DNA of 50,422 nucleotides, counting the filler, from Sphacelaria rigidula (lineage: Eukaryota): NCBI GenBank assembly GCA_964200075.2. It is 3 parts of 3 records of this genome, joined end to end, with 100 filler letters (N's around TTAATTAATTAA, not from the genome) between each part and the next. Parts side by side here need not be neighbours in the genome. Positions count along the whole stretch, not along the records: positions 16,847 to 33,586 come from CAXNAA020001268.1; 2 more parts are not named here. The stretch is one strand, 5' to 3'. Under the pieces are notes generated by a model. The model had not been told where the DNA came from, did not search any database, and saw only the letters and a list, made by a program, of their open reading frames with translations. How positions within the stretch are numbered: position 1 is the first letter of the stretch; every line of letters begins with the position of its first letter. Shown here piece after piece: positions 6,800-30,951 of this stretch. A program made the position numbers and the translations under genes.

Positions 6800-6940
6800 C
6801 TTACGATGCGCCAGAGCAGCCCCATAGAGTCCAAATATCAACATACACGCAGAACCGAGAAACCACAAGTACATTTTTTGTCGTGCTGCTCGCGGAGTGC
6901 GGAGCTTGTGTCGATCGAAATCCCATCCCGGCGCAGGCAT
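6800..6940 (-). CDS. Putative Nudix gene exon 1 with N-terminal transmembrane segment
   Basis: ATG at 6940; MPAPGWDF...KMYLWFLGSACMLIFGLYGAALAHRK contains a hydrophobic helix; AAG|GTATGA donor, phase 0; divergent from the GCP5 start at 7492. Confidence 0.5.
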
Positions 6941-7665: not shown

Positions 7666-7839
7666 GTAGGTAGCGTTTTGTAGAGGGGGCAAGATGTGTG
7701 CGTGTGTTGCGTGCAGGCTTTGTACTCTTGTCCACCAGGCCTCGTTTCGGTACAATTTTTGGCTGACAGTCCCGCGGGATATGCATGTGCACCCATCAGC
7801 CATGTACTATACTGTCATGGGTGGGAATGGGATGCCTCA

Positions 7840-8309: not shown

Positions 8310-8869
8310 TAAGGACAAAAAAATCGACGGTAAACTAAAAATAATTGAAAAAAAAACGCGGAGGGATAATGAACACGTCGATAAGTGGTCGCACCTGTGC
8401 CGAGGCCCTCACCAACATGACACACACTTCATCACTTATTAAGTTGGTTTAGGATGGGACAGCAGTAGCACTTGAGATCGCGCGGTTCTCGACACAAGAA
8501 GCAAGCCGGCCCACGGCATTTCACAGCCCCCCGCATACACACACCAGCTAGGGAATCTGTTTACACATTTTGCTCAAGTCGCGACAGCGGACGGGAAACC
8601 GCCCCCCAAAGCCGAAAATAAGTTATTGTTTGTATATTTGGGTTCGTTGCGGCTTAGTATCATGCCCAGACGCAAAAGTGTAACTCGCTGACCTAGCTTG
8701 AGTGTGTGGGAAGCGCACGCGAGAAACCGCAGTTCAATCCTCCACTTCGTTGCCGAGTTCTGAGCGTTGCGCGATCGGCACTTTTGGGTTGAGGATCAGT
8801 AGCGTCTTTTGAGGTCCAAGATGGGAAATTCCAACAAATCGGTGCGCACGTTTTTTCCCTTGCCGCAAG

Positions 8870-9337
8870 CAAGTTGTGACGACATGCAGTTTGGTTGCGT
8901 GCCGCCAGGCGCTGCTTTGTTCTGTGCTGCTGTGCACAACGGGCAATTTCGCCATTCAATAGAGAGTATCCCTTCAAGTGTCGAATTGCAGCGGGAGAGT
9001 TCACAGAAGAAAGACAAAGCTGGCGGCTACTTTGTGTCAGGGCTCAAGTGCAGAAGCCAAGGCATCGAGAGCGATTTTAGTATGTGCACTGCCTTCCATC
9101 TGCTGGTGACTGTGATAATGTATTTAGTAACTGTCTGTATTGATTGATTGATTGATTGATTATCTCACATGAGCTGATTGCAACAGTCCAGCCCGTGGTC
9201 AGGAGCAGCAAAAATAGAACAGAATGATGAAAAAACACGATAAAGAAAGGAAGGAACAGAAAAACGACAGAAGCAACGGCCTCCGAAAGGAAAAAAAGGG
9301 GGCAGCGATAACAACAAAAAACACCACCACCACCACC

Positions 9338-9369
<32 letters not shown>

Positions 9370-10175
9370 ACAAACAACAACAGGAACAAACAACAGCAGT
9401 AACAACAAAATAACGACAAACACAAAGACAAACACAAGCACGAACATGTATATACTAATATGAGAATAAGATGCACACTATGCGACGTTCGACAAGCTTC
9501 GTTTTGGGCTGCGTGTTTTTTTTTCTCGCGACGAGTGATTTGTGACAGCATTTCACTTTGTGGCTCACCACTAGGTGCTGCTTCGTTCTGTACGGCTGTG
9601 CACAAAGGGTAAATTCGCCTTTCAACAGCGAGTACCCTTCATGTATTGGGATGCAGAGGGCGAGGTCACACATGAACTTCGACTGTTGTGTCTGAGGGTT
9701 CCAGCGGAGAAGCCAAGGCGCGCAGAGCGATTTATATTTTTGACTACGCACTGTCTATGTATGACCAGGTCGGCAGAGCCACGATGTTTCAAGTGACTGC
9801 CTCTACATACTGCAAATAATATGTAAATCATGCGATTTGCGCCAACTTGCATCTTCGACCAAATGTTATGTTTTGGCAGCAATCAATGTCATGACATTTG
9901 CTTTGGTGGCGTTCGCCATGTGCTGCTCTGTTCTGTGGGCATGTGCACAAAGAACAACCTCACGTATCATGAGCGAATACCCTTGTATCCCTTGACTTGT
10001 GGAGGACGAGTTCACAGATGAAATAGGGCTGTCTTGTGGCAGACGGTTTCGAGACAGAACCTAAAGCGTGTAAAGCGATTTTTATTTTTGATGATGCACG
10101 GGCCATGTATGACCGGGTCGGCAGAGCAACGATGTTCCACGTGACTGCCTACACATGCTGCAAAGAACATGTATG
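8870..10175. repeat. Three diverged direct repeats of ~220-290 bp (~8870-9090, ~9540-9825, ~9885-10175)
   Basis: Shared blocks gctgct..gttctgt...tgtgcacaa, taccctt, gag(t/g)tcaca, agcgattt; units 2 and 3 also share tatgacc.ggtcggcagagc.acgatgtt. Confidence 0.75.
9141..9381. repeat. Microsatellites (TGAT)n at 9141-9161 and (CAC)n(AAC)n at ~9322-9381
   Basis: Directly visible. Confidence 0.9.
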
Positions 10176-12454
10176 CTATGCGACTGTAGCCAACTCGCTG
10201 TTTAAACGGGACACTATAGAGGCGGGAAGGAGCGCAGTCGGTGACTACCCAATTCACCTCAATAAGGAGCGTTGCCCCCTCCCATGTCACCATCCATCTC
10301 GTCTCTGCCGGCCTCATATATATTTTTTGTCACATTTGTCCAACTTCGTCCCTTACGAGATTTTGAAATTAGGGGAAAATTGACGGTGAAGGTGTTGATC
10401 TGGACAGATTGTACCAGACCGTGCCCAAGCCACTGACAAGATGGGATTCCTCCCACTCATGTCATGACCCTGACCCCATCAAGCCCATGAAAAATTCACT
10501 CTCCAATCCGGCAGCCACAGGTATGTGTGGGACACGCAGTGCGCAGCCGATCCGCACAGCTTGAACCGCTTCATCGTCGACATCATCAACATCGTTCTCA
10601 GTAGTTTCCACACGCGCGACGCTGCTGCTCATGGCTTCCAATTTTTCATACTTTCTCGTTCTAGCACGATGTCAGGCGCGCCTTTCACTGCAGTTACATT
10701 GGTGTGTGGCGGCCACAACTGTTGCCGTTCGTGTTCTTGTCTTGGTATCTTCGCAACGGCGGTAAAAATGGGGTGGCAGCTCGGGGGCGTGTGCTTCTCG
10801 AGTAGTATAGCAGCTGAACACTATTATAGTGCACCAAGATTTTCCAGCCATTGATCTGGAGCGAGTTATCCGGAGGAACAATATAATCTCAACACCGGCC
10901 ACTCACAGGCTTGAAGATACCTACCATGTTTATAGTACATTTCATATGAGCCAGGTCGTTGCTTCTAGGTGACGCGTGTATTTTTTATTGATATGATTCG
11001 CCCGATTACGGTCTAGTTCTTCCGCATATAGCATTCGCGATTCATTCTCCCGGAATATAGTACCCAAAATCGCCCCCTATTCCCATCCATAACTGTAGTG
11101 AACAAGATTTGACCAAGGTGTAGTACAGACAGCACTACACTGTCCTTCCTGTCTCCAAACAAAAGGGTGTAAAAAATAAGTGCAGTACAGACAACACAGA
11201 CTGTACTGTCTGCACGCATCAAGCTGTAAAACAGATTTGAACAACGTGCAGCACACACGGTACAAATTGCCTGGTCTGTCTCTCTATATAGTATGAATGT
11301 ACACATGGAGTATTAGAGTGCAAACCAGAAGTGGACACCGTGCAGTACAGATAGTACAGTTAGGGATGCGAATCGGGAGAGGGGGGAGGGGGGGTTAGCC
11401 CCTCAAAAGTGTACGGACTGTTCGACAGCATTTCCGACCATAAACAATTCATCTTGTCCCCTTTGCTAACCGTGTTGATACGCTTGATTTTTTTTACAAC
11501 ATCCTTTGAATGGAGAAATCGTGCGTTCAGACGACGCCCTCCCTATTCAGACGCTACATACACCTCCACACCGTTGATACGGAGTGGGCTGATACCTACT
11601 TTTCAAGTGCGTTTAAAGCGTACCCTCAAAACGTGCAAAAAAAAGGTCATTTTCTGCTTTATTTTGATGAGCGCGGGACATTTCCTGTAGAAGGGGTGAC
11701 AGCGTTCTGCATTCGGATTTGAAGCACATGACGCGAAAAACAGCGCTCTGATGGCACACGTCGCTGAGGAGAACTGGAGTGCCAAAGTTGCTTCCTCGAA
11801 AGAATATCCCGACCAACCCACCGTCCTCAACAAAAGCTGACGGGAAAAAAACACAGAGGGGTCTAGGAGGGAAATCTCGGAGGAGAGATCTGAGTGAGAG
11901 TATGTTCTCTTCGGTGCGTGCGTGCATCCATATATAGTGCACTTTTGACAAATTATAAATAGAAAGGCGCTGCCGCTTGTGTACCTAGTCGCACAGTGAA
12001 CCCAACGTAGAGAGCGTGGCGTGTACAGAAAAAAAAAAAAATCATGGTGATGGTATTATGCTCTTCTGTTCTGTAGTCGTGTCGAGTCTATTGGTATCAC
12101 CATGTGTGCCATACCTGCCATACCGTTTTTGCAGCATCCGCCCGCTGTGACAATGCTTGAGCTTTGTTTCTCGGGAAAATGTGGGGCAAGTGTCACCCCC
12201 GGGGTGGGTGATATGCAATGGTATAGTTTTCACTTGCAAAATGAATGTAAGGCCCAGATGACCCACCCTGGCAGTCTAAGGGTTCACTTTTAGAAGTTTT
12301 GACAGGAGGAGGTCTCGGTCTCCAAAAGGTTGGTGTAGTCTGATCGTTGGTGATACCCCATCAGTGAAGAGAAGGGGCGCAGCGGGGGGAAGAGAAAAGA
12401 CAAAACTGTACTACTGTACTGCCTTGTACTTACTGCCTTGTACTGTACAGTGCG

Positions 12455-12680
12455 TTTTAGTTCGGCTTACATGTCGCCACCGGTTAAGGCGGGGTTGAGG
12501 ATTCGAATCCCAGCAGATACGTTTTTTTTTAGGGACTATCTGGTTTCAGTCGTTGGAAACATGTTTCCGTGAGCAGCAAAGATTGTGACGAAAGCGGACC
12601 GGATGCTGGAGTGCTGGTCCACTCCGTGAAGGCAAGATGTCACGCATGAACCGGGCGAGAGATGGGTTGATCCTTTCAGA
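12455..12680 (+). mobile_element. tRNA-derived SINE-like element
   Basis: B-box GGATTCGAATCC at ~12499; body (ggagtgctg.tc.actcc, gagagatgggttgatcc) matches the reverse complement of 45270-45520. Confidence 0.7.
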
Positions 12681-12949
12681 CTAACATCTCGTTCCGAGAA
12701 AGGGTAGGGCTTAACAAAGCGGCGAAAAGGCGAAAAGCAGCGGAAACGAGTACGATCACACATGAACGAATATATGACCACCGAAGGCCACCCTCTTTTT
12801 CAACCCTTATGCGCTCGAAATGTCAGTTGCGCTATGTCTGCCCAATCATATCAAAATTACTCGTGAATGCAGGTATGTACTGTACAAAGCTCTGCCTGGA
12901 TTATATCTGCGCAACTGTTTTGTACTGTACGCAACGACTTCCGTCACAG

Positions 12950-13051
12950 GTGAAGACCACGGTCTGCGGATTCGCCGAGAAGCTCCTCATGGAGGGAAAG
13001 CCGCAGAATGCTACGCGGCTGCTCCAGCTGTCGTCAAGATTGAGCGGAAAG
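12950..13051 (+). CDS. GCP5: GCP5 exon 2 (VKTTVCGFAEKLLMEGKPQNATRLLQLSSRLSGK)
   Basis: CACAG acceptor, AAG|GTGCGT donor, phase 0/0; continues the GCP5 N-terminal similarity. Confidence 0.8.
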
Positions 13052-13664
13052 GTGCGTGGAAGGCGACACAGACGCACGATGCATGGGTGTGTTTCCGGTC
13101 TGTGTTGCCGAGTGCACCCACGCCGACGGGCTCTCGAACCGAAATATCATGCGAAGGGCGAGCTTATGAGCAAACAACAATTGGTGCCGAGCGTCTTCTG
13201 AAAAGGGGCCGGTACACTCGCAGTCGTATTCATGATATTGAAACAAGACATATCCGTTGTTCACACCGTACTTGAAAATCCTCGAGCCGTGGACAGTTTG
13301 GTTCCCATCACCCCCCCCCCGCGCGCGCGCGTGTCCTCTTGTTCTTCCTCCCCCTCTTTCACTCACATATTTTGGTTGTCAGTTATCCAAGAATCGTGAA
13401 TCAGTAAATGTCCTGGCAACCCCCACAACGCCTGTGTGATAATGACTCTCGGTTTCATGTTCGGGCAACTACACTATTCCCTCGATCGCGTACCGTATCA
13501 CGCTTGTCCGCAATGCACTCCCGACACTACAGTAAGATTTCCTGATGCTTGGCACACACCTCAGCTGCATTTTCAAGTCTCTTACCGCCCACCCCCCTTC
13601 CTGAATCTGTCATCACGCAAAGCTTATGCGAGTTGAAGGCTACGACATACCCATGTCTGCAAAG

Positions 13665-14175
13665 GCAGCAGCAGATGGGTTCGACGGGGGTAGGAGGCTT
13701 GACCACCCCTTCGCAGCGCTCGCGCTTATTCTGGCTCTGTCGGGCTCGCCGACGTACGCAGTGGGTGATGACAATGGAATAGTTTATACTGCCGAGGGCC
13801 CGGTGGAGTCCGGAGGCGATAGAGCGGCTGCCGAAGGGATGGGTCGGCGTTACGATGATCGTGATGAAGCGGGTGGAGACGTTGGCGATTTGTTGGGCGA
13901 TTCGTCCAAGCTTTGGAGCACTGACAGCGAAGAGGAAGCGGAAGAGGAAGAAGAGGTTGGAGGAGGAAACGGGGAGGGGGCAGGGGCGTATGTCGATGAT
14001 ATCGTGGGTCGAGTACCTTTGCAGAGCGGGGGCGGCCCCGCGGTGCGGCGGGAGGCGGGCGATGGTGACGATGACGAGGAAGGCGAGGGAGAAACGACGC
14101 AGCAGTGGCTGCAGGCGTTCCAAGATGAGCTAGACGAGGAGGCAACGAGCGGCGAAGACAGTGCCCACACGGATG
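13665..14175 (+). CDS. GCP5: GCP5 exon 3 (HPFAALALILALSGSPT plus acidic linker)
   Basis: LxLLLxLSxSP motif of GCP N-terminal domains followed by an acidic low-complexity stretch; G|GTGAGT donor, phase 1; acceptor position approximate. Confidence 0.75.
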
Positions 14176-14400
14176 GTGAGTGCACGAGTACGAATGTTAA
14201 TTGCTTTCGGAGTACCGATCACGATATATTCCGTCATGTTGCACGCCTGAAACGTCAATATGCCATGACACACCTGTTGGAGAGTCATGCTTGCTCCCAA
14301 TTCGAACCTCTACGGCGCAGCTGAGCCAAATGGGCAAGATCTAAGAAAACACACGCCCTCGTGTGATGCTTGCCCTTCGCCACCGACTATCGGTTCGCAG

Positions 14401-15137
14401 ATGAGGGATACGGCAGCGGCAAGAGCGAGACAAGGAGCTATTCGACCGCGAACAACACTCCACTTATGTTGGTGCAATGTTCACGTTCTACCGGCTCAAG
14501 GGGTGGTCCGAACAAGCTTCACGAGGTTTCCGTTGAGCTAGACCACTACGATCTCGGCGGAATCCGCCACAACTTTGGTGCAACTTGTGTTGGAGCCGAC
14601 CTCCGTACTCTAGGCGGCGGGTTAAATACTAGGAGTAGCCCTCCGCCGTTTCTTCGCCCGTGCCAGACGTTAGAAGCTTATCAGTACACCCGACCACCTC
14701 GCGCCGTGAGGCGCCGATGCATCCCCGAAGCCGAGGTGGCTCGCGCAGCTCTGCACATGCTGCAAGGTTTGGGCGGGGAGATATTCGAATTAGTTTCAGA
14801 CAATGGCAACGGCGATGCTTGCGGTACATCAGACCGCCGCGGGTTCAAGCGGTTCGCCCTCAGTGATTTTGCTGTAAGGGACCTCGGGGTTGCCAGTCTT
14901 TCTCCGGCGGCTCTGTCCAGTGTGCTCGACGAATTCGTCAGCTTGGGGTGTACGGCACAGTATCTCAGGGATTTCATCGCGGACGCCGCAAATTCAGCTT
15001 TGTATGCGGCACGATCGCCGTCTGTGGTATCAGCAGCAACAAGAGGACGAGCTCCGAATTCTGCGGCAGCTGACAACGGGACGCCACGTCTCATTCCTGG
15101 TCGAAGGGCATCCAGCAAGCATGGACATACGACGCAG
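14401..15137 (+). CDS. GCP5: GCP5 exon 4 (start of GRIP1 domain)
   Basis: IPEAEVARAALHMLQG and SLSPAALSSVLDEFVSLG...LRDFI are GRIP1-type motifs; CGCAG acceptor phase 1, CAG|GTGTGC donor phase 0. Confidence 0.85.
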
Positions 15138-15463
15138 GTGTGCGCTTGTAGACGCTGCACGACTCAGAAATTGGAGTGTGCGGTATTCTTCTCTACTCTA
15201 TTGGTACATGTGGCGGACAATGACCGGTTAGCCTCGCTCTATGAACATTGGATGCTACAGCGCTCAAAATCCTCATGTTTTTTGCAGGGTCCCCGTCCTT
15301 GCACCTGCAGTGCTTGTTGTTCATTCCGACAAGGCCCGTTCAGTTGTCACAGTCATATAACGGAGTACACAATCTAGGACATGATATGCAACATGTACAG
15401 GCCGGAAAACAAGGATTATACCAAACGTGCGACCCCCTTCCCTGGACTCTTGTGTTCTCGTAG

Positions 15464-16440
15464 GCTTTTGTGGCGTGCGTGCGTCGACAGCTGGAGGCTT
15501 TCGAAGGCGCTGTCGGGCGTCGAGATCGCTGGCTTTACCGCCGGCAGCGCGGACTGGATGAAGAGCGAGGGCAACTATGTTCAGAAGAACATGATCTTTA
15601 TCGTGAGAGACAGCATCATCTACACCGACGACAGGATGCGCATGAGCCATGTAAAAAAAGCGGCGGAGACAAGAGACAGGGGGCGGCAGGAAGTGGGGAG
15701 ACGCTTCTGGGGCTGTTAGACTTGCTGCGCGTAGAAGCCGAGAGCCTGCAGCTCACCCGGCGGTTGGTCTCGACCGGGGCGGGGTGGTGGATGGAAACCT
15801 CGGCAAGTGAAGGCACGCAATCCTCCGAGAGATCAACTGGCAGCTTGCGGCAACGAACAGGCAAGCTGTTAGCGTCCTTGCACGACGCATTGGTAGAGGG
15901 CGCGCTTGTCAGCCGGCCGCTCCGATCACCTGCTCCGGGGACTGGCGACGGAGAAGCTGTGTCATGGGGAGCAGAAGCATGCAGCCGTGCGGCGACGGCG
16001 TCAGCCACAGCGACACCTCGGCAGCGAGGCTGGCTGCTCGCTGTTTTTTGCGAAGTGCTCGCGCCTTACCTACGCCTGATGGACCCCTGGATCACTGAGG
16101 GAAGGATCGAGGACCCGCATGGCGAACTATTTTTCTCGCAGATTGGTGTTGGTGGTGGCGCTGCTCCCGGCGGGGTCGGTCATGCTGCACCGCGTCAGGA
16201 CCACCGGCTCGTTCGGCTTGGTGCGGTAGCAGAAGAGAAGGTACCAGCTGATCCAGTGGTGCACGTGTGGGACACTGGAATCGTGTTGCACGAGAAAGCT
16301 CTGCCCCGTTTTCTGGCCCCTCTGGCATCCGTCGTGGCCTTGGCCGGGCAGGATATATCTCTCATGCGCAGGGTGCGGGCACTGGTTGCTGCCATGCCCA
16401 AACCTTACCTTGCTGCCGCGATCGGACGACCCGCTCCAAG
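15464..16440 (+). CDS. GCP5: GCP5 exon 5 (GRIP1 domain); remainder of the gene is absent from this contig
   Basis: LAPYLRLMDPWITEGRIEDPHGELFF and LPRFLAPLASVVALAGQDISLMR are characteristic GCP motifs; CGTAG acceptor. Donor is either AAG|GTGAGC (16440) or AGG|GTGCGG (16372). Confidence 0.88.
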
Positions 16441-16746
16441 GTGAGCTACGTTGGTCTTCATGAAATTATCATGCTGTAGTCCGAAGATGATCTTACAATC
16501 TGGCGCAAGTCCTGTCACTGGTGAATAAATTGGACGACGGGACGGGGGGATACACTTGTCAAGGCAAAGAATCACGGGCTTCGATGATCGCGCTTCAAGC
16601 TTCTTGCTTGCCGTATTCTTTTTGAAGAGTTTGGCGGAAGCGACGCACGTGTCCCGACGTACCGCAAAGCTGTGCTCCAGAGACGTTGAAACGCGATATC
16701 GCTTCTCAACGCGCCTCTCTCGCCCCGAATACCCTTATCCCCCCCC

Positions 16747-16846
16747 NNNNNNNNNNNNNNNNNNNNNNNNNNNNNNNNNNNNNNNNNNNNTTAATTAATT
16801 AANNNNNNNNNNNNNNNNNNNNNNNNNNNNNNNNNNNNNNNNNNNN
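16747..16846. other. Artificial contig spacer (N44-TTAATTAATTAA-N44)
   Basis: 100-bp N run containing a six-frame stop linker. Confidence 0.97.
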
Positions 16847-19178
16847 GTCGGTGCTTTCAACGACGATCTGATTCGAAATTTCCACCAACAAATGGCCCAA
16901 AATACCCCCCTCCCCCCCTATCGTAGGATGACTCTTCATACAAAATATTCTTGTTCACTCGTATTCTTTATCGCTCCGTCCTATGCTCTCTCACGTTGTT
17001 CACCAGCTATAGCAGTGCTTCGCGATCAGCTCCAGATCGCAAGTAATCGAAGTGGGTCAGAAAGAGTACTGCCTGGACCTTTTATCAGTCTCGTATCCAT
17101 CCTAGTTCAGGCTTGATCAGACCCGTAACTATAAAATCCGAGATTTGAACATAAACGCCTCCTATAGCTGCATGACACTCGCCCATCCAGACGAACCTCA
17201 ATTACGTTTGCGATGAGAAATCTCGAAAAGCAACGAAAATCGAGTTTTTTCTCCACGTCAAGTCATGAGCAACAAGGAAGGCGAACTCAATGCTATAAAA
17301 GCGCTCGGCCATAGTGGCTACGAAAAAGAAGGTACATCCCATACGACGAGGGCAACATCCACTCCGTTGCCCGATCCTCCCACACCTCAAACAAGGTAAG
17401 CGAAATCTACTACCGAAAAGCGCAAGCGCGCTTGAAGACGCAGGAGCACACAATGCTGCTGCGGGCTAGCGAACTCAACAGACGAACATAAACATGCTTT
17501 GACGTGCTAGCCAAAATGAAGAGGCAAAAGGGAAACATACCAGGGGTACAACGTCTACGTGGGTGGTACCAAAGTCAACCGCCGAAAGGTCAATCACATG
17601 CGGCGGGCACATGGCGGCTGAGGAAAGCAAAGGAATCAGCAACTCCAAGACTGCAAGCGGTCCAGCGCTAGTCATGCAAATCAAGAGCCGAAATGCGAAT
17701 CGCTCCAGTAGCCGAGGATGAAGGTGCGCTAGGCAAGGTCCATTCGTGGTCGGACGTTGTGCGCTGAGGAAGCTCTGATTGCAGGCTGTTGAAGGAGTTG
17801 GCGGACGGCACCGGTGTGTCCTGAGTGATGGGAGAAGGGGAAATGATCTAAAATACAGCGACAGAGGAAGAGAAGAAAAGAAAAAGGAAGGATGTCAAGG
17901 CGGGGGAGGGAAGAGGTCCGTGCAAGTTCAAAGCGGTGCGTTGACATCGTGTGCGCGATCGATGTTATGTTGAATTCCGCTGCGGAGGCCTTTGGACTTG
18001 TGTCGCTGAAGACACCAAGATCCTTTCGGTGTGGATAGACTTGTGGTGTAAAGCTGTGTGCGGAGTTTGAGGTGTACGGATCCGGGGTCATCGATGAAGC
18101 GCACGATGCATGTGTCAGGCGCAGTGCGGTCTACGGAGTTGGTCTGGCCCAACCACCAGAGGTGGTCGCTACCTTTGTATCACAAGTAAGCGCCTTTGGG
18201 GAGGACTTCCTGTTTCGGGCGAATCTTTCCTTCCCAATGTTTGGTGGCTACTAATTCATAGCCATCAGCGACAAAGCGTAAAACTTTCTCAAGGTGGAGT
18301 TCACGTGCTGCTGCGCCGCGGCGCATGTTGCGATATTCCTTGTTGTTAGCAAGATGTTGCTGTTGAAGTTGTGTCCAGTACAGGAGAATAGCTCGGCGGT
18401 GCAGCTGAAGATCGGATTCGCGTTCCCAAGACGCTCTCCGAAGACCTTACCAGTGAGTTTTGTACATCACAGCAATCTTACCGCCTCTACCGCGGGGGAT
18501 CTGGTGACCAGAGATGTGGGACACCGCGAGACGAAGGGATTGTTCCGTCACGTCGTCGGTAGTAACGTGAGAAGGGGGTGATTTGGTCGAATAGCTGTTA
18601 AGTACGTACTACGTAAGACCGGCAGGCAGATATTTGGGCATGTCTCTAGTGTCATGCGGATTGATGCACGGTTTACAACTGTGCACAGAGACGCGAGATT
18701 TGGCGTCATGTCCCTGAAGATCGCGAGGGAGATCGAGATAAAGAAGTTTGTCGCCAACAGGTTTGCCATCAGGTGATGATGGCGAGGACCCTACGATCAG
18801 AATCTTGAATGGTCCTGTCCAGTTGAGGGATAGCTTAGTCTTCAAGACTGTCTCGTTGGCAGCTCTGTCGGCGCCTTGGCAATTGGTTAACAAACTGTTG
18901 TAAACCCAGACCCAATCGCCAACCTTCCAAGTAGGTCGTTTGTGCATCAGATTGTAGAGAGCATTATTAGATCTCTCAAGACGCGAGGCGTTGATAGCGT
19001 GTTGTTCACGCACGAGGGTGAAAGCTTTGCGCTGGCGTGCACGCGCCAGGTCATGGTAGGATATCTGATCCTGATCCAAGACTTGGTGGCCATCGAACGT
19101 GTGTCTCTCAAACATGGTGATGGGCAAACGCGGGTAGCGGCCGAGATGTAAGTCGTTCGGAGAAAGACCGGTGGCAGC

Positions 19179-19389
19179 TGTAATGCGTGAGAGGACCGCG
19201 TGCTTTAAGGACCGCATCGGGATTTGAACATCCCTATGGTAAGTGTTAGGGTTAGGGTTAGTGTTAGGGTTATGGTCAGGGGCGTGGTACTTGCAGGGAC
19301 TGGTCCGATTGGTTTTGAAAAACGTCGATCCTGGGGTGCTTTGAACTACGGCGCGGTCCTCTAAGCACGCCGTCCTCTCACACATTACT
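19179..19389. mobile_element. 211-bp TGT-ended MITE with internal (TTAGGG)n tract, copy 1
   Basis: ~35-bp imperfect TIRs, 5-bp TSD GCAGC (19174-19178 / 19390-19394); removal restores integrase NAATG. Confidence 0.92.
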
Positions 19390-19531
19390 GCAGCGTTGAC
19401 GCAGTTGTTATAAGACAACATGACATGTGAGAGATGGAAATCCCAATCGTTTTGTCGATCGTTGACGACCATAGACAGCATCTGGGCCATGGTGTGGTCA
19501 ACTCTTTCAGTACCACCGTTACCATTAGGAT

Positions 19532-19742
19532 TGTAATGCGTGAGAGGACCGCGTGCTTAGAGGACCACGCCGTAGTTCAAAATACCTCAGGATCGACGTT
19601 TTCCAAAACCAATCGGGTCAGTCCTTGCAGGTACCACACTCCTGACCCTAACCCCAACACTAACCCTAACCCTAACCCTAACTTTAGGGGTGTTCAAATT
19701 TCGATGCGGTCCTCTAAGCACGCGGTCCTCTCACGCATTACA
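19532..19742. mobile_element. 211-bp TGT...ACA MITE with internal (CCCTAA)n tract, copy 2 (opposite orientation)
   Basis: Perfect 35-bp TIR TGTAATGCGTGAGAGGACCGCGTGCTTAGAGGACC, 5-bp TSD AGGAT (19527-19531 / 19743-19747); removal restores integrase YHPNGNG. Confidence 0.95.
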
Positions 19743-21792
19743 AGGATGATAAGCGCTCGTAGCTATCTTTCGAATGCCCAGGAGCGTATACAGTTCGTCC
19801 GAGAGATCGGAGCACAATTGCTGACCATTGTCGGAGAGAAGTCGTTTCGGATAACCGTAGTGCTTGATAAAATCGTCAACTAAGATGTTGGCTGTGCCTG
19901 CGGCTGTGAAGTCTCCAGCCGTGACTGCGTACATGGCTGCGTGACGGCTGAAACGGTCGGTAAAGAGTAAGGTGTAGATGTTTCCACGATCAGTGGGCGG
20001 TAAAGGACCGAAATAGTCGAAAGACACGAGGTGACCAGAAGCGTTGGGAAGTGCCGTCGTCAGGTGGAAGCGTGCTGCAGAACTCGCTGCGCGGAACGAA
20101 CAGTAGAAAACGCCCCGTTGAGGCAACTGTGGGTGCACCTATACGATACTGTAGGCTACTGCAAAATCATTTAAGCGGATGAATAGCAAAACGACTCACG
20201 TAAACAACAAGTGCGAAACAAGCTACAGGAAGATGGGGAAACATTAAGTAGAGGGCAGTACAGGCAGTATACCCCCCGGGACCCGTCGGTGTTGGGCGTT
20301 GTCACTGTAGGGTTCTGTGTTGGCAGTTTTATTTTCGATCGAAAAAATGGCGCGGTGGAATCGATCTGAGCCAAAATTTCACATTTCGATGGAGCTGGGT
20401 CCAGATGAATTTTCAAGCTTTCGATCCAAAAAATACGATGAAGGTCGTGAAGCGGCACATGGTCGCTCGTGTACAGTACAGGCAGTCTGTACTGTCCGCA
20501 CTGCTTGCAAGCACGGTGTCTTGACTGCGAGTGTGTGTATTTCGTGCAGTAGGATACAAAGGAGAAGCCGGTAACGCGCAGTGCAGACAGCCCAGGACTA
20601 TCGGTTCTCTCTGCCTACAATGCGACGTGAGGAAGACTTCCGCAACGCGCAGCTCTGTACGCCCTGCACTGTCCATGAGCGTGCACGCAACTCGGTTGCC
20701 CTTCGTATCACGGAGTTCCGCCGCTGATATCCACCATGAGAGTAGATGCGCAAGGTTTCGCCAACAAAAACTAAGCAATCCCCCCCCCCCAGCCACTGTT
20801 GTGTATCTTTCCCTGTGCTGAACTCGTGCTCTATGCCGCAGGGGGTCGAGAGCAGCTGATAACGAGTTGGATGGAGTTTGCATGGTCCCGTGACAAGGTG
20901 TTATTTGGGCTGGTGGGCTGTAAGATAGGAGACAAGCGTCCCTTAGTGCCTCTCGATAGCGTGGTTTCGATAGAAAACGATTTGTTTTTTCCTCGTTACA
21001 TTCTTCTCCGCGCGACGCTTAAAATAATTTTAAGGTGAGGCATGCAAGGAACATTAATGCCGTGCACCTATCAGATCGGCAAAAACAAACGCCCGCATTT
21101 TTTCGATCGAGTTAGTTTTAGCCAAGTTACGCCCTACACAGAAGTTCGTATAGGGAGACGTTCCTGGCACCAACGCTAAAACCCCGTCGCTTGTATCCGT
21201 CCAAACATGTTGATCCTGCATTGCAAAGGTATGAACAAGGCCACCTCGACTATAGTAGAGCAAGTGCTCGCCGACGAGCTGGCGTGGTATAGGTCTTTAG
21301 TTCAGGCGGAACAAGTGAAAGACAAATCGCTGGGGATGACGGCTCTATGCACGAAACTGACGAAAGCATTCCAGGCGGAAAGTGCCCTCTTTCCATGCTT
21401 TTGATGACGAGAACCGCATTAGCCGGAGACATGAGCCTGCAACCTTATACCACCGTGGTTGCTTAATCTCTAATGCTTGCAAGGTTGTATCTCTGTACCG
21501 TGCTTGTAGCCTTACACTACTCTGCTTGCGGAGCACAGCCTGTTCTTCTCACCCCGCACTACTGTGCTTGCAGAATGATACTCGTGGACACTTCTGTACC
21601 CTACGGTGACACCCGGCACTGCGCAGTGCGACAGTGATGCAGGTGGGCTCCCGAAACGACTAATAGGACCACTATTGATGGCAACCAACCCGTATTTGCG
21701 GAAATATTAGGATTTCAGCCCGGTGATAGCCGTCTTTCTCCCGTGGATTGATTTTTCGGACCCGCAGTCCGTTGGGCAATATTTTTCGTCTC

Positions 21793-21954
21793 TCTGAGGA
21801 AACCAGATCGATTCTCCGATTCTCTGGGCGCTGGGTTTTGGTAATCTGGGGCCCAAATCGGGGGAAATGCGGGAGTCTCCCGATCTGAACAAAAAGGCGA
21901 TGAAAAACGTCAGCGCCCAGAGAATCAGAGAATTGATGATCTGGTTGCCTCAGA
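21793..21954. repeat. Inverted repeat (probable MITE) abutting the Gypsy 5' LTR
   Basis: ctgaggaaaccagatc..ttctccgattctctgggcgctg vs cagcgcccagagaatcagagaa..gatctggttgcctcag. Confidence 0.65.
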
Positions 21955-21974
21955 CTCAGAGCCAGGCAAAGAAC

Positions 21975-22655
21975 TGTGCTCAGATTTCAGTGGATCATTA
22001 GATGAAAACATAGCTGGTAAAACGCAGTGATGTGGGTCAAACGGGGATGTTATCAGAGGTATAGTGGAGTATGACTGCAGTACCGCACTGGGGAGTCTTT
22101 GACAAGTTTGTAGAGGGTTGACACAGACAGGTTTGAGGCTGATACAGACAGGGTAATGCAGGAGAGTTGCACAGACTGTGTTGATGTGGATGCGAGAGGG
22201 CCAAGAGTCTGGAATATATCCTTTGGCTAGGACTATCTGATTGGATGCTTGGGGACGGTTGGGGGACGAATAGAGTAGCCAGAGCTGTCGACATAGCGGA
22301 TAGAATGTGACGACCAGGTGCGGTGCATCTCCTCGTGGTGTTTTGGTGTGGGTCGTGCAGAGTTTTGGGCACGCCCCACCCCCTTTCAGTTCTCACCATC
22401 CCCGCAACAACTGGGGTTTGGTTTCCTGCAAGCAGTCTAGGCGCTACTAAAAGATATATAAACCTCTACACGGCTCAAGTTTTGGCTACTTTCTTCCTGC
22501 AACTGCATCTATCTACCACAAGATATCCTCTGCTACCACCGCTGCAGCCCTCCTCAGCTCCGACTTCAGTCCCACAACTGAAACGCAGAAACAAGAATCT
22601 ACACGCGAGAAGTGGGAACCTCCGAGTCTCCAAAGTGAAATTCAGGTTCCTTAGA
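21975..22655 (+). repeat. 5' LTR (~680 bp)
   Basis: Start shared with the 3' LTR stub; TATATAAA at ~22455; ends just before the PBS (…TTAGA where …CA is expected). Confidence 0.7.
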
Positions 22656-22656
22656 G

Positions 22657-22672
22657 TGGCGTCGACGACTGG
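22657..22672 (+). promoter_or_regulatory. Primer-binding site TGGCGTCGACGACTGG (probably tRNA-Ser)
   Basis: TGG start, located between the LTR and the gag ATG; complement ends GUCGACG-CCA, as in some eukaryotic tRNA-Ser. tRNA identity is inferred. Confidence 0.6.
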
Positions 22673-22725
22673 TCTGCTGCGTTTCTGCTTGGGGATTTCG
22701 GCTGTCTGCTCGAGGGTGGTTGGTC

Positions 22726-25700
22726 ATGTCAGGTACGACGGGTACTCAGGGTAAGGATGGGAGGAGGGGTGGGGTCACGCGGTCACAGCGGGCGGCTGCG
22801 GCCCCGCGTCTGGCCGCGCCTCCGAGTCCGCTCGCTGCGCACGCGGCGCGTGCTGCGAGCAGTGAGTCTGGTTCTGATTCGTCTATTCGTAGTGCCCATG
22901 CTATTCGTTCGCCGGCTCGTTCGGAACTTCGGGCTGCTGCGGGTAAGATCCGCCCCGGGCATGCTAGTGAGAACTCCCCTCCGTCGCCGGAGGGTACGGC
23001 GGGGGCGGCGGGGTCGTCCCCGTTGGGTACGGGTGGGGTGGGTACGGTCAATCAGGGTAGGGGTAACGGGGGTTAGGGTGGGGGAGGGGTCGCTTCGGCC
23101 CCTGACCCCCTGGTTAAGGTTCTTGATGCTCGCGGGTTTTTTTCAGTCTCCAGGCCTCGTGGGACGGAAAAGTCGAGCATTGATGAAACGCCCGGCGTTG
23201 AAGCGGTGCTTTTAGCGCAGATCGAGGCGGGGGATAGCCCCTCCCGCTCGAGTAGTTTCGGGCATGCGGTAGCGGTTCCGCCGCGGGAGGTAGGTCGGGG
23301 TGCGTTGTTGATCGCACGTGGCCGCTCGGGGTCTCGCGGGGGTTCTGTCGTGCCCCCTGCGTCGGATGTGTCGTTTGAGGAGGGTGGTAGTGAGGTGTCA
23401 TCTGTCCCCCGCAGCGCGCCTATTGGTCCTCATGTTGCCGTTCGTACCTCACACGTACCAGGCAATGTGGATCAGGAGTTGGTGGAGACGGAGAACGTTG
23501 CCCTCGAGGCGGAGGTGGAGGCCGCGGTGGGGCCCGCGTCGCCGCGCGGCCGCTGTGTGATGGGGGACGACGACCGCCGGACGCCGTCGCCACCGCCGCG
23601 GTTGACGGTGCACGAGCAGGAGGTAAGGTTAGGGTTAGTGGTGGAGGCGCGTAAGATGTTGGCCACGCTGACCCTGGAGGAACGGTGGTTAACGGAGGGT
23701 AACGCCTTGGCGGCGGACGAATTGTTCGCTCGTCAGTTGCAGGCGGATGAGGATCGGGGGGGTAATCCGGCGGTCGCTCAGTCGGAAGTGGGTTCTCGGA
23801 CTGTAGGGAGGGTACTTGCGAGCAGTTCCCGCTCGCCGGGGGAGAAAATGCCGGGGGTACGGGATAACGGTTGGACGCGGGTGTCGGGTTCCCGGTCGTA
23901 TGCGGATGTGTCCCGTGTGTCCCGTCCGGCGGTGACTGGGGGCCGGTTTGACGTGTTGCGCGATCCGACTCCGGATAAATTGTCTCGTGCCTCACAGGAG
24001 GCCATGGTCGACATTACACGGGCGACGGAGGCCGCGGCTTCTCGGAAGGCGGGTCTAGACGGGGCCGTCGCGAAGGATGACGCGGCGAAACTGGCCGTCC
24101 AGACGGCGGTGTTTCGCGTGGCGGTCGCGGGCGTGGAGGCCGCGGAGGCTGCCGCGGAGTTGGAACGGGCGGAGGCCGTCCAACTCGCCACGCGGGTAGA
24201 GGTTGAGCAGGAAGCCTCGCACTTCATGGAAGCGCGTTCGCACCGTGAGGCGGTGATCTCTGCGTGCGCCCAGCAGGCGGGGCCCTTGTTCGGTAAGTGG
24301 GCTCCGCAGCTCAAGTTGCTGCGGGACGCGGAGCCGGTGGTTAACTGCGTGCCCGCCCCTCGGCCCGTGATGGGGGTAAGGGGTTCTCCCCCGGGGGTCG
24401 CGCTGGGGTCGGGAGCTTTGGTCGCAGCGGGACCGCCGATGGTCCCGCCCGCGGCTCCGCTGGTTCCCGCGCAGGGGGCGGGGGTTGGCGGGGTAATGTC
24501 GGCTGCTGCCACACCGGGTGGATTGGCGACGGTTCGTTCTAATACGGCAGTATCGGTTGCGGCTCGCGGGGTGGCGGCGGAGGCAGCCGGTTCTGTCTCT
24601 GGCCCGACCGGTGGCGTGGCGGCCACTGGCGCGGAGGGGTCGTTTGCCTGGGCGGCGGTTGAAGGGTTGCGTGGTGCCCCGATACCGCCCGCAGTGGGGG
24701 CGCAGGATGGGGGGTCCCTCGCGGCGCCTCGGGGCTCCGGTGAGTGGGGGGCGGACGGGGTGCTTGCGCTGCCTCGCCTCTCGGACGAGGAATTCAAGTA
24801 CTGCGCCACCCGCTGTCCCCAGGGGGTGTCTTTGCCGGGGTTTTGCCGGCAGAGCCGGGCGTTGAAGGGTTCGTGTCCTCCTCACCGGGCGTTGCAGTCT
24901 TGGGAGGAGGAGAAGCGGGAGCTGCTACGGGGCGGGGGGGGCGTTTTGGCGCAACTCGCGGTTCAGGACGCCCAAGGTGGAGCGGCGCTGGCGCCTGCGG
25001 AGGGTGCCCGCGGTCAGCCGGGTTTTCAGTCGGGTGGGCCGGAGCACCGGGAAACGAAGAGGTGGGTGGCGCCCGATGGGCCTAGGTGGGTGTTGCAGGG
25101 TTGTGTTGTCGCTGGTCTACCCAACGATGAGAGTTTTCGGGGGGGAAGGAGTCCTTGGGGACTGCCGACTCGGGGGATGGGTTCCCGTCGTTGCATACCG
25201 CGCATATTGCGCAGGGGTATGCGAAACTCAAACTGGATTTGTTGGCGGACCTGCCGAAGTTACCGTTATCGTCCACTCACAACATGCAGCAGTTGGTGGC
25301 GTTAGTGGAGGGAGTGAAAGATTCGGTAGCGGCAATGCGGCTCATTGTGGGGGACACCCATCCCACGCGTTGGACGCGGGGTTGGGAAAAGACCCTCCAA
25401 AAACACTTGCGGCGTGCCGTGCGGCCAGGGGCACCGGACGCCCCGGGGATCGTGGCTCGGATCGGGGACGTGATCGCTCACGCGTCTCGTTTGAGGGGGA
25501 GGGGGCTTCTGGGCCAGAGGCTATGGCGTTTCTGGTGCGGGTGTTGAGCCGTTAATCGAGCAATCTGACACCTGACGCCGTGCTCCGGGAGTTGATCATT
25601 TTCCGGGCAGCGGAAGGGTCTTTGTTCGCCAATTATTAGCGCGACCTACGGATTCTGGTGAGCAATGTTCAGTGTCTGGGGGCCGAGGTGACTCCGGATG

Positions 25701-26314
25701 AGGCGCAAGTGCAGTCGGCAATTAAAACGGCCATTCAGGACCAGTTCCCCGGGATTAGTGGCCGTGTGTTTGCGGGGCGCGATGATTGTGCGACGCCGTT
25801 CGACTCCCTCGAGTCGCTGATGGGCAAGTTGGACTAGTTCAGATCCAACACGATGCGGGCGCACGCGCCGCGACTCGTGCAGGGTACCGGAGGGGGGGCG
25901 GCGCGGAGCCGTTATCCGCCGAAGTCGGGTCAGGGTAGGTCTTTTAGCGGGACCGTGATGAGCATCACGGAGATGCGCGATTTCCCCTGCGAGGATCGGG
26001 AGATGAAATATGTGTATACGGTGGGGCGGGCTAATTCGGACAGGTTCGGCAAAAACAGGGATCCTCCGTTCTATGAGCCTTTCCCCACCCGCGAGCTGAA
26101 CAAAGCGCTGAAAGCATTTGGGTCGTATTGTCTCAACTGCGACAGCGCCGACCACACTTTGGCTCGTGAGTGTCCGAAGGAGTATATTAGTAAATCGGGT
26201 TTAATACATCACTCGATGGGTGAGGGGACGCCGGAGGAAGTCCGCCAGAAATGGGTGCGGTGGCAGCGCCGCCTGCGCTCTCACATTATCGACAATTACC
26301 CTCAAAAGAAATGA
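22726..26314 (+). pseudogene. Long Gag-like region, frameshifted; zinc knuckle near the C-terminus
   Basis: ORF pieces 22726-23076, 23206-25305, 25155-25547, 25853-26314; CLNCDSADHTLAREC at 26129-26173. Confidence 0.7.
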
Positions 26315-27299
26315 GGGCGCGACGGTAAAGTTCTGGCCACTTTACCGGCAGCACAAGGGTCAGTGCAACATGATACTCAGAGAGCTCAACAAGGTCGGTC
26401 GGCTGTGTTATTGGTTCCGCAGCAGGCTGCGCCTGCCGTATGTGGCGAAATTTCTGTCATCTCCCGTCGGCACAGCGTGGACAATGGCGAGGAGGCAGGG
26501 TACAGTTTGCCTGGGAGTGTCGGTATCGGTGCGGGGGGGGTTCTGTGCTGAAGGTAGCCGGGGGGTCTGATCAACTTTTGAGGGATAGGTGCGAGACGGA
26601 GGCAGCCCCGGCGCTTTGTGCGACGTCTACCGCGCGCCGGTCTCGCGGGGTGGACATCGACCGACGGGGAGGGGACCAGTCCCGGAGTAGCGCTCCGGAT
26701 GGTCTCTCTTCCCACAGTGGTGTGGGTGCGCGGGCACAAGGGCCACTGGTGCAGGCCTGCTGTCGCGGTGAGCGTTGCTTACGTCCGCCAGATGCTAGGG
26801 ACAAGGACGGTCCTGGTGTGACGGTACCGTCGCATGATTTGGAGAGCCCAACAGGTGAATTCGTCCTGGGTGAGGGAAGCGTGTCGCATCACGGTGCTCG
26901 GGGCTCAAGTTGTTCTCGGCGCCGTTACCCTCAGAAAGGGGGCGGTTTCATGTGCTACCAAGTGGGGGCTTGCCCTCCCGGGCTCCGTGCCAGCCGGGGG
27001 CGGCCCAGGCTTTCACCGACCATCCTTGCGGAGGAGGTCACTGCGGGGACCACTGCGGGCTCGGTGCCTGGCAGTGTGGTTGACTTACCCAACCACGTGA
27101 AACCGTTTAGTCCCTCCCATTGCACAGGTACAGCCGAGGCGGCTCACCTTGCACGATCTGTGGCTGGAGTGTCGGACGAAGGTAGTCCGATTTGCGTGGG
27201 AGAGCATATCTATGTTCTAGACCCGTCGGGAAATCGTTTGAATAGTATAGATCCACCACCTCGTACCCCCGATCCCATCCCCTGTCAGGTACCGCGCGG

Positions 27300-27970
27300 G
27301 CGGCAAGGGACGTTCTTACCGGAAGTAGCTGAGGTCTCCGGCGGATATGTATCCATCGACCGCGCTCGGAACACGGCTGGGGTAAGGGTGTTTTGCGGGC
27401 CTAAGGCGATCCGCATGTGGGATTGCTCGGCTTTGCTCGACAGTGGGAGTCCGGCGACATTTATCCTGGATAAGGTATGATTGTCCATGGTTGCGTACGG
27501 GGCTGGATCTGGTGACGCGATGCGGGAGATTAATCCCGTGTCGTGGGGCGGGTTCAATGGGGTGCCTGTGAGAACATGCTCACAGGTGCGTTTGAATATC
27601 CGTTTCGTGGACGGCTCACGCAAAGGTCGGACAACAGGCACGAGTGCATGTTTCGCGATTTACGCACATATTGTCCCGGAGGGTACGATGTCGTTTGATT
27701 TGCTGCTGGGTCGCGATGGGTTGGCTCAGTTTCCGGTGCGCTCGCATCGTGATGTTAGTGAGGATGAAACTTTCATGTCGCTCGCAAGGCCCACTATGGC
27801 TGTTGGACCCACCCCGTGTGATCGCTGGGTCCAAAACGCCGTGGGTATGATTGAACAGTCGACGATATCTGATGAGGAGGTTGTCGCGATTTTTTCAGGG
27901 GAAACTGAGTTGGCGGTAACGCAGGAGTTGACGTGGGTTCCCGTCACACTGCGTCCGACGGGGGGGGGGG
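27300..27970 (+). pseudogene. Retroviral-type aspartic protease region
   Basis: ALLDSGSPATFI (DSG at 27439) and DLLLGRD; in-frame TGA at 27478-27480. Confidence 0.85.
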
Positions 27971-28061
27971 GGCTGCCCCTGAAGGTAATTATTATGTGTA
28001 TTTCGAGGCGGGGGGGTCCCCGTCAGAAATGGTTGTGTAGGCGGGGGATTCAGTTACTCCG

Positions 28062-29975
28062 TTGCGGTTTACAGATGTGGAGTGTGCGTTGGTCTTACCG
28101 GGGATGAAGTTGGGGTCAGCAGGGCAACCGTTGGTACCTTGCTCGCTAAATGATGCGAAAATTTCCAGGTTGCCGGACCCGACTTCGACCGCCGTTTTTG
28201 CAGTCGAGCTGGCACTACCGGAGCCGCCGGAGGCCATGTTTGGTGATCTATGTACGGAGAAACGTGCCGCGTTCCGTCGATTGTGGGGTCGTATCCCTCC
28301 TCACTTACATAGCACCACTTTCGGTTTACAGGACAAGTGCTGGCAGGTGGAGGATATGGATAAGTTGGCGGATGTGCTGTGCAAATTCTCTGACAGATTC
28401 TCGGTGAATAAAATGGACTTGGGGTACTGTACGATGGATCCGTTCAAAATCGAGCTGAAGCCGGGGGCTAACCCCATCAAACAACGGCCGTACCGGCACA
28501 ACCCGTCCACGCAACAGAAGGTGCAGGTTGAAATTGACCGGTTGTTAGCGGCGGGGCTCCTGCGACGTTCTTACTCCAGTTGGAGCTCTCCGTTGGTGGT
28601 GGTGAACAAAAAGGGTGGAGGGATTCGCTTGACTTGCAATTATCGGAAGCTTAATGACGCCACTGTAAGCTCGGTCTTGCCCATTCCGACTATCGACGAG
28701 CTGTTGGATGATCTCGGGGGTGCCAAGGTTTTCACTTGCCTGGATATTCTGTCGGGCTATTTTAACATCTCCCTGCACCCTGACACCATTCCACTGACCG
28801 CGGTGTGTACTCAATCGGGATTGTACGAATGGTTGGTGATGCCAATGAGATGCAGTGGGAGCCCGGGGTGGTTTCAATCCATCATGGCTCGGGTATGTAA
28901 GGGTTTGATGCGGTGTCGTTTGTACATCGATGATGTTTGCACATTCAGTGCAAATGGGGCTGAACATGTGAGTGATTTGTCGGACTTCTTGGAACGCCTC
29001 ACAAAATTCAACCTTAAATTGGCGCCGAAGAAGGCTCACGTGGGGGCGGGGGAGGTTACTTTCCTTGGTCATCGCATCTCGGCGGACGGAATTTCGCCTG
29101 ACTCTACGAAGGTAGATGCGCTGCGCCTCATGCCGATGTCTACTTCCGTGACTGAGTTGCGTTCGCTTATGGGGGGGTTGAGTTACTACCGCAAGTTCAT
29201 CCCAAAAATGGCAGCTCGCACTAAATCCATTAACGGGCTGTTGAAGAAGGGGGTTGAGTTTCATCTCACGCCGGAACATGAGGAAACGGTGTGCGAAATT
29301 CTGGGGGAGTTGACCGGTCCAAAAATTTCATCTTTTCCGGATTACGGTGGAGCGGTGTCGGGGGGTCGTCCTTTCATGTTGGCCACGGACGCGAGCAAGC
29401 ATGGTCTGGGGGCGGTGGTGGAGCAACGTCATGCGGAAGGTGACGTGCGGCCGCTATGTTTTTTGAGCCGCAGTACTTTGCCTAACGAGGGTAACTCGAC
29501 GGCCACCGAATTGGAAGCGGGGGCGATTGTTTGGGCTGTCAAGAAAGACCGCCCGTTGTTCTACGGGATTCCTTTCCAAATTTTCAGCGACCATCAACCG
29601 TTGCGCAATTTGTTCAGCCTTGCGGAGAAGGTGCCCAGGGTCCAGCGTTGGCAAGATTTTCTCAGTGCTTACACCTATGAGATTGTCTACAAGCCGGGGG
29701 TGGCTAACTCCAACGCCGACATGCTGTTGCGCCTTCCTCTTGCTCACAGCGAAGAAGATGTAAGTGGTCCTTTTCGCATCTCTGACCCTGCTGATTTAGA
29801 TGTTTACTTTATCGGGGCTAGCGGGGTGGCGCCGCGGGAATTTGGATCCTCCCATGTTGCCAGCTTGGATGGGCTTCCCTCTGTGGGGCCGGTCCCCGTT
29901 CTTCAAGCTTGGATGGGCTTGCTCCCCGGGGTAATTTTCAGAGGGGGGGGAGTGGACATCCGGCTGCTTCACTGA
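28062..29975 (+). CDS. pol: Pol: reverse transcriptase and RNase H (Ty3/Gypsy)
   Basis: WSSPLVVVNKKGGGIRLTCNYRKLN, LYIDDV (28923), FLGH, LATDASKHGLGAVV, ELEAGAIVWAV, FSDHQPL, NSNADML. Confidence 0.93.
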   Translation: MRFTDVECALVLPGMKLGSAGQPLVPCSLNDAKISRLPDPTSTAVFAVELALPEPPEAMFGDLCTEKRAAFRRLWGRIPPHLHSTTFGLQDKCWQVEDMDKLADVLCKFSDRFSVNKMDLGYCTMDPFKIELKPGANPIKQRPYRHNPSTQQKVQVEIDRLLAAGLLRRSYSSWSSPLVVVNKKGGGIRLTCNYRKLNDATVSSVLPIPTIDELLDDLGGAKVFTCLDILSGYFNISLHPDTIPLTAVCTQSGLYEWLVMPMRCSGSPGWFQSIMARVCKGLMRCRLYIDDVCTFSANGAEHVSDLSDFLERLTKFNLKLAPKKAHVGAGEVTFLGHRISADGISPDSTKVDALRLMPMSTSVTELRSLMGGLSYYRKFIPKMAARTKSINGLLKKGVEFHLTPEHEETVCEILGELTGPKISSFPDYGGAVSGGRPFMLATDASKHGLGAVVEQRHAEGDVRPLCFLSRSTLPNEGNSTATELEAGAIVWAVKKDRPLFYGIPFQIFSDHQPLRNLFSLAEKVPRVQRWQDFLSAYTYEIVYKPGVANSNADMLLRLPLAHSEEDVSGPFRISDPADLDVYFIGASGVAPREFGSSHVASLDGLPSVGPVPVLQAWMGLLPGVIFRGGGVDIRLLH

Positions 29976-30278
29976 CGTCGTCAGAGATAGCGGATGCCAC
30001 ATGGAATCTGATTCAGGAGAGACTTAAGTCATCAAGTTCTACACTGGGCTGGAAGGGACCGGAAGTGGTAAAGGATCACCCACGGCTTCTCTCCCCGAGT
30101 GTTACCGATGTGGTGTGTGGACAGTGGGAACCGGGCTTGTGCTTGCATTCTTGCTCCGTTACTGAAGTGGGAAAATTAGTTGAAACACGAGACGGCGGGC
30201 TCGGAAGTTTTTGTGATCTCAGATGAGGAGGCGGAGTCGACCGAAGAGGACGGTTCGGGTACGCTGGCGCTCACTCTA

Positions 30279-30516
30279 GAGTGATACTGCGGTAGGGTCT
30301 GCACTTTTTGGGCCAAAACCGGCCTGAGAAAATTCAATATCTGAGAACATTGTGACCTCCGCCCGAACCTCAGACTGGAATCATCGCATGGGTCATGGAT
30401 GCATGTTCCACCCGGAGGCTCTAAGAACTGTGGTGAGAGTCAAAGGTGATTCGACATGCCTAAATCCCGATTTTCCCTCAGGCCGCAAAAGCGCAGACCC
30501 TATCGCAGCATCACTC
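30279..30516. mobile_element. 238-bp MITE inserted in the Gypsy RNaseH-integrase linker (Sola2-like termini)
   Basis: GAGTGAT...ATCACTC TIRs (~30 bp, imperfect), 4-bp TSD TCTA; removal restores frame GTLALTL-EAAEACNFGERL. Confidence 0.85.
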
Positions 30517-30951
30517 TCTAGAGGCGGCGGAAGCGTGTAATTTTGGGGAGCGGTTGTGTGCCAAGTCCGCAAGTGACTGGGCGCAAATCCAACTTACTGA
30601 TCTGACCGCTCGTACGACTGCCGTCTATCTCTCGCAGGGAAAGACCACACTCTGGAAGGGAGAGGGGAAAGCGGTGGGTAGCGGGATGGGCGGAAAAGAG
30701 CTGCGAGCGTTGTTAAAACAAGGGGAGTTGCTTGAGTTGGCGGACGGGGGTAAACTGTTGGTGAAAAAGCTGACGGTCGCGCCGGAGGGGTCGGAGGATC
30801 GGAACCCGGGTATTTTTTAGCGATACCTCGGAGACGAACCGATGAGAACCCACGTTCCCTTGTTGTTGAGGTTCTGGGTAATGGACCACACGCACAAGGA
30901 AGCGGTGCACCTGGGGGGAAAAGTGACTTTCTCTCTTCTGCAACGGTACTA

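Follow-up and report, generated by a model that had tools for sequence, protein, structure and literature searches.

Ginger DNA transposons and Gypsy retrotransposons share TGTNR termini, with target-site duplications (TSDs) of 4–5 bp being typical (PMC2836005, PMC10045372). Ginger1, as described from four animal species and not from algae, has terminal inverted repeats (TIRs) of 40–270 bp, 4-bp TSDs of CCGG or ACGG/CCGT, and a transposase that combines H2C2, DDE and GPY/F with OTU or Ulp1 and has no reverse transcriptase (RT; PMC2836005). Ginger2/TDD elements have TIRs of about 50–180 bp and prefer AT-rich RTATAY targets, with TSDs that measure 4 bp in metazoan members and 5 bp in the Dictyostelium elements TDD-4 and TDD-5 (PMC2836005). 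For the brown alga Ectocarpus, Ginger is missing from the superfamilies given in Table 1 of the published account (PMC12477816), and a non-autonomous DDE-type family, DNA5-N1_Ec32 (502 bp, TGTTG..CAACA ends, 9-bp imperfect TIRs, a 5-bp TSD and ~100 copies), is curated there as 'possible Ginger?' (PMC12477816). Brown algae also harbour Copia solo long terminal repeats (LTRs) of ~205–265 bp with TG..CA-type ends and 5-bp TSDs (PMC12477816). The telomere repeat of Ectocarpus is TTAGGG, and three TTAGGG motifs occur within a non-telomeric repeat, a ~98-bp satellite that is tandem and confined to subtelomeres (PMC11541908).

Here, we describe a miniature inverted-repeat transposable element (MITE) family from a 50,422-nucleotide stretch of Sphacelaria rigidula DNA (the window; filler included). 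The family is real, mobile, very abundant and non-coding. It resembles Ginger1 in its TGTNR termini, long TIRs and GC-rich target, with a pooled [A/C]CGG that fits the CCGG and ACGG/CCGT of that group, and differs from it in that the TSDs of the window copies are 5 bp long and without CGG, that the perfect TIR, at 35 bp, falls short of 40–270 bp (~47 bp when imperfect, with ~55 suggested for the ancestral form), and that the window revealed no transposase for it. With Ginger2/TDD it shares the TGTNR termini and, in the window copies, the 5-bp TSDs of the Dictyostelium members, whereas its flanks are GC-rich and its TSDs are GCAGC and AGGAT. DNA5-N1_Ec32, compared by description only, is similar in its non-autonomous structure, ends and TSD length but differs in size, TIRs and copy number, and its published description, as far as it was available, leaves a telomere-like tract unmentioned. 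The Copia solo LTRs are similar in length, ends and TSD, whereas the inverted ends of the element are long and co-vary, an internal region is absent, and its flanks resemble neither a primer-binding site nor a polypurine tract. Like the Ectocarpus satellite, the element carries TTAGGG motifs; unlike it, the element is dispersed and mobile. Searches of the literature, which did not extend to Repbase or Dfam, found neither this family nor any Ginger-type MITE bearing telomeric repeats.

Results

The window consists of three separate contigs (1–16746, 16847–33586 and 33687–50422), joined at 16747–16846 and 33587–33686 by 44 N, a 12-base stop-codon linker and a further 44 N each; because separate contigs were pasted together, nothing can be inferred across the joins. 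The two elements and their parts are as follows.

19179–19389, minus strand: MITE copy 1, 211 bp, ends slightly decayed, final base T
19532–19742, plus strand: MITE copy 2, 211 bp, TIRs perfect over 35 bp
19532–19566, plus strand: left TIR arm of copy 2; AGAGGACC motifs at 19543 and 19559
19708–19742, minus strand: right TIR arm of copy 2; minus-strand AGAGGACC motifs at 19708 and 19724
19174–19178 (left) and 19390–19394 (right), no strand: TSD of copy 1, GCAGC, from sequence and an empty-site joint
19527–19531 (left) and 19743–19747 (right), no strand: TSD of copy 2, AGGAT, from sequence and an empty-site joint
19245–19281, G-strand on plus: telomere-like tract of copy 1 (TRF: 6.2 units, 83% matches)
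19641–19682, C-strand on plus: telomere-like tract of copy 2 (TRF: 7.0 hexamer units, 86% matches)

The copies lie in opposite orientations, separated by a 142-bp spacer, and are 89% alike over 210 nt in a gapless alignment. Sequence and repeat search confirmed two exactly 211-bp elements with TGT...ACA ends, as the initial annotation had proposed; both have the termini TGTAA...TTACA, the right arm of copy 1 carrying three mismatches over its first 27 bases and a terminal T, not A. The 35-bp TIRs that had been called perfect in copy 2 match at 35 of 35 positions and extend to 47 nt at 89%. With up to three mismatches allowed, a 27-nt terminal word occurred four times in the window versus zero times in each of 100 shuffles, and neither this word nor a motif search revealed a third copy or a further TIR match in the window. 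The claim of a motif placed twice in each TIR holds for copy 2, where AGAGGACC is exact twice per arm, and not for copy 1, where each arm has one exact and one degenerate motif; all six exact motifs in the window fall within the two elements. On sequence grounds, these subterminal motifs are candidate transposase-binding sites. Repeated binding sites also mark the ends of bacterial elements of the Mu/Tn7 type, with which the termini described here were compared. As single-stranded DNA, copy 2 folds to −55.8 kcal/mol (z = −11.3). One reading frame of the element is open, but its peptide is of low complexity; neither translated copy matched Pfam at E ≤ 0.01, and no Rfam family or tRNA matched the element. 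An introner reading, raised by GTAATG and by ACA followed by G in the ends, was rejected: splicing would leave five extra bases, and in the host frame both window copies lack an acceptor that could be used.

Both insertions lie in a retroelement remnant that neighbours a fuller relative.

18066–20216, minus strand: Ty3/gypsy-type integrase pseudogene, host of both insertions, with rve core, GPF motif and C-terminal extension
21975–33586, plus strand: near full-length Ty3/gypsy element, its LTR start repeated at 21975 and 33539, extending past the contig end

The pseudogene matches Pfam rve (E = 3.9 × 10^-10) and is 34–43% identical to the integrase of the neighbouring element, covering residues 57–632; no RT/RNase H match was found within 1.8 kb upstream of it, and no inverted repeats flank it. 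It is a gypsy relative, either truncated or integrase-only. The neighbouring element has RT/RNase H at 28041–29972, integrase at 30754–32688 and a 742-aa, GC-rich, gag-like open reading frame with no Pfam match. The pseudogene was also considered as the autonomous partner of the MITE and rejected, as it has no flanking TIRs and its alignment to the gypsy integrase continues across the C-terminal extension.

The different 5-bp TSDs first annotated for the two copies are backed by the host gene and by uninserted sites. The integrase alignment is otherwise continuous and is broken by the insertions between AYHP and NG.. and between ..NAA and TGLSPN; because the insertions split it cleanly, the 5-bp TSDs of both copies are real. 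The locus was detected in five public runs, one labelled algae metagenome and four bearing a coded organism name; four of the five (X1, X2, X3 and X5) were compared with positions 19100–19820 (721 bases) at a likeness of at least 80%. Empty-site contigs from the same organism join 19173 to 19390 for copy 1 (2, 2, 4 and 2 contigs in the four runs) and 19526 to 19743 for copy 2 (5, 6, 0 and 2 contigs), each with five letters shared and 216 bases skipped, that is, the 211 of the element and the 5 of the TSD. These contigs most likely represent paralogous, uninserted copies of the repeated gypsy element. Summed word depth in the flanks of the pseudogene was in the thousands across runs, so the integrase-pseudogene unit is itself a high-copy repeat.

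Copy number proved very high. Over the 721 bases, 11,787 contigs matched in X1, 15,618 in X2, 10,527 in X3 and 4,126 in X5 (4,126–15,618 per run), with flanks diverging at the predicted ends, and summed word depth in X1 was 10^5–10^6 on the element versus ~2 × 10^3–6 × 10^4 outside it, both in the outer flanks and within the 142-bp spacer; neither contig counts nor contig-derived depth equal copy number, and the depth profile is uninformative on the telomere-like tract, which was masked in it. We infer ~10^4 MITE copies in the genome, an order-of-magnitude guess. Among the 24 of 1,134 loose-end rows listed, ends cluster at 19179 and 19532 before the element and at 19388 and 19742/19743 behind it, and agreement among the flanks at these ends is only 0.31–0.37, which points to many different insertion sites. 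In 10, 7, 4 and 3 contigs of the four runs, a joint leads from an element end back to an element start; these abutting copies and the two window copies, 142 bp apart in opposite orientation, hint at clustered or self-adjacent insertion. An exact scan with a 26-mer TIR word gave zero loci in metagenome contigs, and a TIR-word scan of viral contigs likewise gave zero. A 19-mer TIR word gave two metagenome-contig and three genome-contig loci, and all five were set aside as chance matches of 19–21 nt on bacterial-type contigs.

Translated copies extended the family beyond the window. A word-indexed search with the open frame of copy 2 returned a single match, an unnamed protein product of Sphacelaria rigidula (75% identical). 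A full HMMER search with the translated element, covering 1.84 billion representatives, returned 40 proteins at E ≤ 0.001, to which cluster look-up added 2 and profile search 10 (52 in total); one of these, P0046, an SNF2/RING protein whose inserts are rich in PN, was excluded as a copy, leaving 51. Three subfamilies can be told apart at the protein level by mirrored changes in the two arms (CLE..SKH, YQV..TWY and CFL..KKH), and of the ~21 proteins typed by eye on both arms, none is mixed. This co-variation, which would be mirrored at the codon level, fits a TIR transposon and not an LTR. Some copies lie within larger amplified units, as distinct translated copies have a common flank beyond the right end (P0015, P0054–P0057 and P0061; likewise P0018, P0019, P0058 and P0059).

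The telomere-like tract belongs to the element and spreads with it, as the initial annotation had proposed. Within the window, tracts of at least two TTAGGG units occur only inside the two elements, and both copies have a CACTAA variant unit in identical register; in copy 2, the tract has at most ~3 consecutive perfect CCCTAA units. Its place is at the inner edge of the right TIR, where TCAGG(G)-like direct repeats flank it. In the pooled contigs, the inner right arm (agreement ~0.62) reads as two CCCTAA units followed by the mirror of the inner part of the left arm, so that other copies also carry the tract and the ancestral TIR would have been ~55 nt long. Among the translated copies, 49 of 51 have a homologous P/N-rich stretch, or its frame-shifted LT form, as judged by eye, and in the other two similarity ends before the tract position; a strict tract pattern is found in 24 copies, plus 3 in the LT frame. 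PNTN, the translated CACTAA unit, is common to many of them, and tract length ranges from ~2 to ~10 hexamers, varying by two residues (6-bp steps). Given the shared PNTN, the shared position and the stepwise lengths, the tract was already present in the ancestor of the family, and its length drifts as that of a microsatellite does.

Pooled flanks point to a GC-rich target. In the flank consensus, CGG closes all eight rows before the element and opens all four behind 19743 (among the 24 of 1,134 rows listed), although each pooled consensus is a plurality only. Read jointly, these flanks suggest a palindromic target, GATG-[A/C]CGG-CATC, with a 4-bp duplication; this 4-bp NCGG fit conflicts with the window copies, whose TSDs are 5 bp without CGG. 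In the translated copies, by eye, a GG ahead of the element is implied by only 4 or 5 of ~17–19 left flanks that can be read, and most right flanks misfit NCGG, so any target preference is moderate, unlike the near-absolute specificity of Ginger1. P0016 fits a 4-bp GCGG, P0037 has abutting copies with a 5-nt-consistent spacer, and the other flanks are decayed.

Discussion

On balance, we consider that the family is non-autonomous and that its TIRs are probably recognised by a DDE transposase of integrase-like (Ginger) type, which would move it. Such an enzyme, of retroviral-integrase type and encoded elsewhere in the genome, would bind the repeated motifs in both arms, expose CA-3' ends and join these to target DNA whose strands are cut a short distance apart; repair of this stagger would give the TSD (5 bp in the window copies). 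The target would be GC-rich [A/C]CGG, as in the pooled copies. The two window copies inserted 142 bp apart, facing opposite ways, into the integrase gene of a gypsy-type retroelement that is itself repeated. What stands of the Ginger-like family first proposed is thus the TIR family itself, with its TGT..ACA ends and 5-bp TSDs; its assignment to Ginger is plausible only, as no autonomous element or Ginger-type transposase was found in the window, where the only integrases are of gypsy type. The more specific link to Ginger2/TDD fared poorly, since the pooled flanks have the GC-rich [A/C]CGG signature of Ginger1 and are not AT-rich.

An alternative that we think unlikely, though deserving of weight, is that the DDE transposase behind the MITE lies outside the integrase-like group, belonging to another superfamily with 5-bp TSDs or to an undescribed one, the TGT..ACA ends being coincidental. 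No transposase in the window is linked to the TIRs, the TSD data match neither Ginger group cleanly, and Ectocarpus has 51 'DNA/Unknown' families (PMC12477816), all of which would accommodate such a source. However, TGTNR termini together with a short, GC-rich, partly palindromic target and a 4–5-bp TSD characterise the integrase-like group, and among the superfamily TSDs given for Ectocarpus in the supplement, 5 bp occurs only in the 'possible Ginger?' family (PMC12477816).

It is improbable that the 211-bp units are instead solo LTRs of a Copia-type retrotransposon, left by LTR–LTR recombination. Their TG..CA ends, 5-bp TSDs and length would suit that origin, and Ectocarpus Copia LTRs measure 205–265 bp with 5-bp TSDs (PMC12477816), but the inverted ends of 35–47 bp carry mirrored changes across three subfamilies and the hairpin is strong. 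In addition, the flanks are essentially random and have no primer-binding site or polypurine tract in common; the short flank consensus is the same on both sides, as for a target site; no direct pair surrounds an internal region in the window; and two independent solo LTRs 142 bp apart are less parsimonious.

Returning to the Ginger-type MITE, the (CCCTAA)n tract is an inherited internal microsatellite, with variant units already present in the common ancestor of the family. It may have arisen when telomerase healed a break that ended in ...TCAGGG, or through slippage of a CCCTGA-like hexamer. That the tract is instead a selected functional cargo, binding telomere-repeat proteins or seeding telomere healing, is very doubtful: its position is constant across nearly all sampled copies, and the TTAGGG-bearing subtelomeric satellite of Ectocarpus, whose telomere repeat is the same, was compared by its authors with proposed healing seeds (PMC11541908), but its units are decayed in most copies (at most ~3 perfect in the window copies), its retention is predicted by descent alone, and its length drifts in 6-bp steps, as in a neutral microsatellite. 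We likewise regard as a long shot the broader scenario of a Ginger-type lineage that is, or once was, highly active in brown algae and has spread ~10^4 short, interstitial TTAGGG tracts as sites for telomere proteins or seeds for telomerase.

At such abundance, the MITE family would account for megabases of the genome and would represent a lineage of DNA transposons that is unlisted for Ectocarpus. If its partner is of Ginger type, that group would extend to stramenopiles, and the palindromic, GC-rich target would provide a handle on the integrase-like mechanism. Thousands of short TTAGGG tracts can also mislead telomere-motif checks of brown-alga assemblies. The open frame of the element is already among predicted proteins, including one deposited for Sphacelaria rigidula, and these predictions are probably false gene models.

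Further repeats were also observed. The excluded protein P0046 has three PNPNPN-type inserts (equivalent to translated CCCTAA repeats), two of them flanked by duplicated stretches of 7–8 residues, which may be unspliced or inserted telomere-like repeats in the gene model. Elsewhere in the window, a tandem repeat at 633–1036 comprises 2.0 copies of a 204-bp unit (80% matches). Directly upstream of the gypsy LTR lies a foldback of ~162 bp at 21793–21954 (arms 21793–21833 and 21911–21954, 93–94% complementary in parts), which may be another small inverted-repeat element.
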